Source: Escherichia phage vB_EcoM-673R5. From it: 64,000 bases of DNA. The DNA lies in the sequence record ON470615.2; one strand, written 5' to 3'. The notes below the pieces were generated by a model. The model had not been told where the DNA came from, did no database searches, and worked only from the letters and a program-made list of their open reading frames with translations. This document shows, piece by piece, positions 19,178 to 19,243 of this stretch. A program made the translations under genes and the position numbers. Within the stretch, counting starts at the first letter, position 1; every line of letters begins with the position of its first letter.

Positions 19178-19243
19178 ATTGCTCTAATAATTCCATATTT
19201 TTAAAACGTGATGTACACTCATCACGTTTTTTATTAGAGCAAT
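19178..19243. promoter_or_regulatory. 66-bp palindrome: two inverted C1 operators flanking a perfect 11-bp-stem hairpin
   Basis: ATTGCTCTAATAA at 19178 and its reverse complement TTATTAGAGCAAT at 19231-19243, with aaaacgtgatg-tacact-catcacgtttt between. Confidence 0.6.

Follow-up and report, generated by a model that had tools for sequence, protein, structure and literature searches.

The pmgQ-pmgR locus and its C1 operators

The 64,000-nt stretch of Escherichia phage vB_EcoM-673R5 (ON470615.2) analyzed here, referred to below as the window, is by its sequence that of a P1/P7-type punavirus or phage-plasmid, and positions 18600 to 19900 share 99.1% to 99.5% identity with SJ46, P7, and P1. The element under study occupies positions 19178 to 19243, in the 81-nt gap between pmgQ and pmgR (Table 1), and is identical in P1 and P7. 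The 72-aa ORF and the coiled-coil gene upstream of which it had been placed in the preliminary description are pmgR and pmgS, respectively, both of which are on the + strand; pmgS is non-essential in published screens (PMC10695390). The + strand carries every gene between pmgL and pmgV, these two included, so that none is directed at the element from its right side. In the P1 record, the pmgN-pmgQ unit is driven by PpmgN/Op83, with LPpmgL and P1/P2pmgL, the latter with Op82, located further upstream.

Table 1. Positions in the window of the genes, operators, and predicted signals at and around the pmgQ-pmgR gap
Feature	Position	Strand	Description
pmgQ (hdmD in P7)	18477-19176	+	Glycosyltransferase-like; closes the pmgN-pmgQ unit; TAA stop codon at 19174-19176
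OpA (OpmgRa, formerly Op86a)	19178-19194	+	ATTGCTCTAATAATTCC; 14/17 to the consensus ATTGCTCTAATAAATTT, first 13 positions exact
PpmgR of the P1 record, -35	19179-19184	+	TTGCTC; labelled predicted
PpmgR of the P1 record, -10	19202-19207	+	TAAAAC; labelled predicted
Proposed PpmgR, -35	19191-19196	+	TTCCAT; overlaps the 3' end of OpA; from a position-weight scan
Inner hairpin	19203-19230	+	11-bp stem (arms 19203-19213 and 19220-19230) and 6-nt loop; -13.4 kcal/mol, z = -5.0
Proposed PpmgR, -10	19214-19219	+	Hairpin loop TACACT; invariant T, A, and final T
Putative U-tract	19227-19235	+	T-run TTTTTTATT of a putative intrinsic terminator; common to the A-rich 3' end of OpB
OpB (OpmgRb, formerly Op86b)	19227-19243	-	ATTGCTCTAATAAAAAA on the - strand; 14/17 to the consensus, first 13 positions exact
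pmgR (shtA in P7)	19258-19476	+	72 aa; P1 record; PMC9024508
pmgS (shtB in P7)	19478-20740	+	420 aa; coiled-coil region per the P1 record
c1 homologue	34671-35517	-	Located by tblastn with P1 C1

In the window, pmgQ is broken into ORFs of 172 and 63 aa by single-G deletions in G-runs at 18926 and 19053 relative to P1, and the pmgQ region is 2 bases longer than that of the window in all of the 18 phage records. Relative to RCS47, 1-nt indels at 34782, 34916, 35144, and 35453, mostly in homopolymers, divide the c1 homologue into ORFs of 63, 72, and 122 aa. The breaks in c1 and pmgQ probably represent long-read homopolymer assembly errors rather than a dead repressor. A further indel is present at 35593. 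With single-base homopolymer indels in both pmgQ and c1, exact run lengths in the window should be read with caution.

The outer arms of the element had been proposed to be C1 operators, and comparison with the catalogued sites of P1 and P7 bears this out, since they match OpmgRa/b and Op(sht a/b) base for base. The P1 record (AF234172) contains two protein_bind features, OpmgRa at 82152 to 82168 (+) and OpmgRb at 82201 to 82217 (-), the first 13 bases of which are the arms; they are described there as monovalent C1-controlled operators, formerly Op86a/b, controlling the expression of pmgR and pmgS. The matching sites in the P7 record (AF503408) are annotated Op(sht a/b). The C1 operator consensus to which the two 17-mers were compared is an asymmetric 17-bp sequence (quoted in PMC8546580). 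The 13-mer ATTGCTCTAATAA occurs with at most two mismatches at 17 sites in the window, versus 1.8 expected, and none of 100 shuffles reached 17. The element of the window is thus almost certainly the known Op86a/b, being like OpmgRa/b of P1 and Op(sht a/b) of P7 in position, sequence, and flanking genes, without any difference in the operators. These operators are already known, having entered the reference annotation two decades ago; the P1 record cites experiments for C1 binding at Op82, Op88, and Op94 and none at Op86a/b. The P1 and P7 records differ from the description given below in that the hairpin between the operators is unannotated and the predicted promoter lies 12 bp upstream of the position to which the comparative data point.

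The two 17-mers of Op86a and Op86b are 32 bp apart (49 bp from center to center). Like the bivalent operators of P1, such as Oc1ab (Op99a/b), the element has two opposed C1 sites on one promoter; however, the 17-mers of bivalent operators overlap into one imperfect palindrome, whereas those of the pmgR element are separated and are each annotated as monovalent. A bivalent operator of the overlapping type is present elsewhere in the window, at 5712 to 5739, where two C1 sites (17/17 and 15/17) overlap in opposite orientations.

Layout and conservation of the 66-nt element

From 19178 to 19243, the element consists of ATTGCTCTAATAA, TTCCATATTTTT, AAAACGTGATG, TACACT, CATCACGTTTT, and TTATTAGAGCAAT, in this order. 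A repeat finder places the exact reverse complement of the first arm (19178 to 19190) at 19231 to 19243, with 40 nt separating the two, and an inner perfect inverted repeat of 11 bp, AAAACGTGATG/CATCACGTTTT, encloses the 6-nt loop TACACT. The 13-bp inverted arms and the hairpin with an 11-bp stem are therefore both present as previously described. However, the same description of the element as a 66-bp perfect palindrome does not hold, since only 28 of the 66 positions are self-complementary when two-fold symmetry is required over its whole length. The left 12-nt spacer TTCCATATTTTT (19191 to 19202) has no counterpart on the right, and the symmetry centers of the outer arms (19210.5) and the hairpin (19216.5) are offset by 6 bp. 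The element is composed of two separate inverted repeats, the inner one nested off-center in the outer one. The 81-nt region has a folding energy of -26.9 kcal/mol, compared with -6.4 ± 2.4 kcal/mol for its shuffles (z = -8.7).

To describe the element among relatives, 94 other loci covering the pmgQ-pmgR gap were collected from phage records, plasmids, IMG/VR, one-genome-per-species contigs, and assemblies; the scan of the one-genome-per-species contigs contributed only three of these loci. Six lineages were told apart, namely, the P1 type, Cronobacter phage JK004, Salmonella plasmids, the metagenomic contig L097, and two Pantoea-type lineages, with PmgS proteins sharing 51% to 74% identity with that of the window. 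The element was found in all of the 94 loci, so that the palindrome was never missing from relatives with the same flanking genes, an absence that had been named beforehand as evidence against the proposal. Measured between the outer ends of the two operators, the element is exactly 66 nt long across the lineages, with the exception of one locus having an additional T. The operator cores are nearly invariant across lineages, and the spacer and stem sequences vary. Identity between the two outer arms is 12/13, falling to 10/13 in the Pantoea-type lineage, and no co-variation was found between them; the arms diverge independently and thus behave as two protein-binding sites rather than as a stem. 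A search of positions 18900 to 19600 against Rfam (E ≤ 1) returned one spurious microRNA match only, whose 19.6 bits fall short of the gathering score of 211.

Three remoter loci possess different inverted arms, which are 17 to 20 nt apart and do not enclose the inner hairpin. These are a Logan contig (arm AAGATACTAATTTAT), whose PmgS is 27% identical to that of the window, a Pantoea sp. plasmid (arm AAGATACTAAAATAT), and a Citrobacter plasmid (arm ACCATACTAATT), the arm motif of which occurs again at two further intergenic places, as a dispersed operator would. The arms at the remoter loci bracket a -10-like hexamer, GATATT or TATCAT. Since two inverted arms also bracket these hexamers, the bracketing of the promoter by two repressor sites seems to be older than the hairpin. 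In the distant, P1-like Citrobacter freundii plasmid NZ_CP145667.1, a different dispersed motif, AC(C/A)ATACTAATT, is found in intergenic positions at 2712, 2744, 4356, and 6592, and it is probably the operator of a diverged C1-type repressor.

The inner hairpin as a putative + strand terminator

The stem arms of the inner hairpin differ among lineages, being AAAACGTGATG/CATCACGTTTT in the P1 type, GAAGCATGGTG/CGCCATGTTTT in JK004, AAAACATGGTG/CACCATGTTTT in the Salmonella plasmids, and AAGGTGTGGTG/CGCCACATCTT in the Pantoea type. Pairs were counted on the 28-nt hairpins only, because a MAFFT alignment of the complete 66-nt elements put a gap in the wrong place for the Pantoea type. In the 28-nt alignment, 94.5% of the cells are paired and 4 of the 11 pairs have changed on both sides; when the partner was slid by one to three columns as a control, pairing was only 33% to 68%. 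L097 retains an 11-bp stem in a pairing register shifted by 3 nt. Structure is thus conserved over sequence in the stem.

The two strands are not equivalent in this respect. In the P1 type and the Salmonella plasmids, whose stems contain Watson-Crick pairs only, both strands are equally stable (-13.4 kcal/mol in P1). The - strand hairpin is 5 to 11 kcal/mol weaker in the other four of the six lineages, because G-U pairs of the + strand become A-C mismatches: the + and - strand energies are -14.0 and -5.8 kcal/mol in JK004, -16.5 and -11.0 kcal/mol in L097, -16.3 and -7.7 kcal/mol in L087, and -19.1 and -7.9 kcal/mol in Pantoea alvi/L089. By our own count, + strand pairing is preserved in 10 of the 13 asymmetric transitions. 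The five arm asymmetries that are fixed in JK004 and the Pantoea type are without exception + strand G-U pairs. Within the P1 type, the variants seen in more than one locus are all G-U compatible on that strand, and the pair-breaking variants are all singletons. These patterns argue for a stem that is maintained by compensatory change as a + strand RNA hairpin, and, by this comparative test, the hairpin is functional and acts on the + strand. The bias toward + strand pairing argues against both a cruciform and a bidirectional terminator. The strand asymmetry in four of six lineages speaks against the cruciform suggested in the preliminary description, and so do the outer arms, which lack co-variation and match at only 10 of 13 positions in the Pantoea type.

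On the coding strand, the hairpin is a stem-loop containing G/C pairs that is directly followed by UUUUUUAUU, 27 nt past the stop codon of the co-directional gene pmgQ, an anatomy that resembles that of enterobacterial intrinsic terminators. The stretch TTTTTTATTA after the last G/C pair, with T at 8 of 10 positions, is present in four of the six lineages. The Pantoea-type lineage combines a strong hairpin with only 2 to 4 T's out of 10 in this stretch, which suggests that the hairpin may have been conserved for a role other than intrinsic termination proper. The element differs from enterobacterial intrinsic terminators in that the hairpin would be nested in the next promoter with a -10-like hexamer in its loop, and in that its U-tract, poor in one lineage, is at the same time part of an operator. 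A simple consensus terminator scan of the window passed over the hairpin, since four of the T's are taken up by the full 11-bp stem. Its absence from the P1 annotation is uninformative, since the P1 record contains no terminator feature over about 15 kb, even at the canonical hairpin after pmgS. The - strand tail after the stem is UUUU followed by A's (UUUUAAAAAU in P1), whereas JK004, L097, and the Pantoea type lack such a run, and with it the A4 run that precedes the stem in the P1 type. Of the earlier proposal of a bidirectional terminator, the terminator-like hairpin is strengthened by compensatory change in diverged relatives, and the bidirectionality is not upheld, there being neither U-tracts on both strands nor convergent genes. 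The comparative and positional evidence suggests that the hairpin is most likely the terminator, or the 3'-end structure, of the pmgL/pmgN-pmgQ transcripts.

Published P1vir RNA-seq data (PMC8201110, Table S1) are gene-level logFC values against a phage-free baseline, in which termination, RNA stability, and gene dosage are inseparable. At 10 min, these values are 6.9 to 7.4 for pmgO-pmgQ in the wild-type host and 6.1 to 6.6 in the dksA host, compared with 9.0 for pmgR in both hosts and 10.0 (wild type) and 9.1 (dksA) for pmgS. Between 10 and 30 min, the increase is 4.0 to 5.0 for pmgL-pmgQ and 1.5 to 1.8 for pmgR/pmgS in both hosts (PMC8201110). The kinetic class switches exactly at the boundary between pmgQ and pmgR, which supports an early-active promoter in the 81-nt gap and indicates that the late upstream surge is not passed on proportionally to pmgR and pmgS. 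A rough per-nucleotide estimate for the wild type, with read count taken as proportional to 2^logFC, gives rises of 1.8 for pmgS and 4.4 for pmgQ. The step is compatible with termination at the hairpin.

The position of PpmgR and the proposed arrangement

Candidate promoters in the gap were scored with a sigma-70 position-weight matrix, the frequencies of which follow published compilations. The top + strand candidate uses the hairpin loop as its -10 hexamer in all seven representatives, with a -35 hexamer 16 to 17 nt upstream. The loop varies among TACACT, TATCAT, and TATTAT, and its positions 1, 2, and 6 (alignment columns T37, A38, and T42) are invariably T, A, and T, which are the three best-conserved positions of the sigma-70 -10 hexamer. 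The -35 equivalents are TTCCAT, which is weak, in the P1 type and TTTACT, TTTAAT, and TTGATT in relatives, of which TTGATT, a good match, is that of the Pantoea type. The score of the loop candidate rises from 6.4 bits in P1 and 8.4 bits in Salmonella to 10.2 bits in both JK004 and L097 and 11.8 bits in the Pantoea type (TTGATT-16-TATTAT). For comparison, the best scores in random 100-nt windows have a median of 5.1 bits, and their 95th and 99th percentiles are 8.95 and 11.1 bits, respectively. On its own, the P1-type candidate is therefore unremarkable, being barely above the 5.2 bits of the annotated promoter. Taken across the lineages, these data suggest that the hairpin loop TAnnnT most likely serves as the -10 hexamer of PpmgR, which would shift the promoter about 12 bp downstream from the prediction in the P1 record. 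Transcription would then start at about 19224 to 19228, in the 3' arm of the hairpin.

Relative to the operator, the loop hexamer starts at position 37 and the -35 hexamer at position 14 or 15, distances that are also found at Plpa/Op94 (Olpa), the C1-controlled promoter of the late-gene activator, which is listed in the P1 record without the word "predicted." At Plpa, too, the 3' end of a + strand operator overlaps the -35 hexamer, which begins at operator position 15 and is followed by a 16-nt spacer and a -10 hexamer TATTAT from position 37. Unlike the pmgR element, Plpa/Op94 has a single operator, with neither a second inverted site downstream nor a hairpin around the -10 hexamer.

Two other kinds of promoter were considered in the gap and rejected. 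For a P1 late (Lpa-dependent) promoter with a -22 box of the AAGTTACTT or ATGTGACTT type, the best candidate, ACGTGATGT, matches at six of nine positions, overlaps the hexamer, and is not kept in relatives; comparison with the -22 boxes of LPpmgL, LP26, LPhot, and LPpac gave no match at the correct spacing. A - strand candidate, ATGATA-18-TAAAAT, which points antisense into pmgQ, scores 10.2 bits in JK004, Salmonella, and L097 (loci L003, L092, and L097), but the P1 and Pantoea types reach only 6.5 to 7.5 bits, and it is attributed to chance in AT-rich DNA. A literature search on Op86 and on start-site or terminator mapping in P1 returned no usable result.

Under the arrangement proposed here, a terminator of pmgQ would be nested in a C1-bracketed promoter whose -10 hexamer is the hairpin loop. 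Op86a and Op86b would flank a sigma-70 promoter of the pmgR-pmgS operon. Judged from the geometry, C1 on Op86a would cover the -35 or upstream side, from about -49 to -33, and C1 on Op86b about +2 to +18, so that the two sites would lie at the edges of the RNA polymerase footprint and together could silence the promoter in the lysogen. On the + strand, the hairpin and the following UUUUUUAUU would end transcripts arriving from pmgL/pmgN-pmgQ; PpmgR transcripts, which would begin in the 3' arm and lack the 5' arm, would escape the terminator. This mechanistic picture as a whole lies, on the comparative data, somewhat on the probable side. For the more specific statement that one 66-bp module ends one unit, starts the next, and bears both repressor sites, with the U-tract inside the downstream operator and the promoter predicted in P1 misplaced by about 12 bp, the chances appear evenly balanced.

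The promoter may instead lie where the authors of the P1 genome placed it, with the -35 TTGCTC in Op86a, the -10 TAAAAC, and the start in the loop; Op86b would then be a downstream site, and the hairpin would still be the pmgQ terminator. In P1 and Salmonella, the annotated promoter scores 5.2 bits, which in P1 is near the score of the loop candidate, and TTGCTC is invariant, as expected of a hexamer that is also the operator core. However, its score falls to between 0.2 and -5.6 bits in the other four representatives, where the -10 hexamer is lost (TGAAGC, TGCGGC, TAAAGG, and TTAAGG), TAAAAC itself lacks the final T, and the record labels the promoter as predicted. This placement appears unlikely.

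It is considerably less probable that the inner repeat is a DNA site over the promoter for a dimeric protein, either a phage or a host regulator, with which the arms co-evolve. Symmetric arm changes would be expected for a palindromic binding site as well as for an RNA stem, the repeat overlies the promoter core, and the Pantoea type keeps the repeat without a good U-tract. As far as covariation is concerned, only the G-U bias opposes such a site: the arm asymmetries are nearly all of the + strand G-U type. In addition, a fixed protein site would not tolerate the 3-nt register shift of L097, in which the + strand hairpin stays stable, and there is no known candidate protein.

Slightly less probable again is a hairpin in the leader of the pmgR mRNA, serving as an attenuator or 5' stabilizer of transcripts that start upstream of 19203. 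Such a hairpin would be conserved on the coding strand, as observed, and weak upstream promoter candidates exist (5.5 bits), but none is conserved in the position-weight scan, the hairpin and U-tract would terminate the operon's own transcript, and expression is already high at 10 min. The pmgR region of P1 is not known to possess an antitermination system. A cruciform-prone palindrome or bidirectional terminator is scarcely credible, since the equal folding of the two P1-type strands and the A4 run before the stem are set against symmetry at only 28 of 66 positions, - strand energies of -5.8 to -11.0 kcal/mol in four lineages, the missing A-run in JK004, L097, and the Pantoea type, outer arms without co-variation, and the lack of a - strand gene directed at the element.

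A likely terminator nested inside a repressor-bracketed promoter is the one modest new point at this locus, and its reach beyond P1 biology is limited. For those who use or engineer P1, it offers a correction and testable detail, namely, compensation on the coding strand only, an invariant TAnnnT loop, and a fixed span of 66 bp. With terminator, promoter, and both repressor sites packed into 66 bp, the element would be a tidy natural example and could serve as a compact insulating part.

Two further terminator-like hairpins were noticed in the vicinity. One, on the - strand at 21367 to 21390, lies just downstream of the operator at 21318 to 21334 (+), which corresponds to Op88/OpmgT, and the neighboring genes are on the + strand. 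The other, at 20760 to 20788 (+) between pmgS and pap, is of the canonical type, with AATGCTGGTGG...CCACCAGCATT followed by TTTTT, and is unannotated in P1. From 10 to 30 min, pap rises by +2.8 to +3.0, which is between pmgS (+1.5 to +1.7) and the upstream late-type genes (PMC8201110). This intermediate rise, despite the strong hairpin before pap, might reflect an additional promoter or differing stability.
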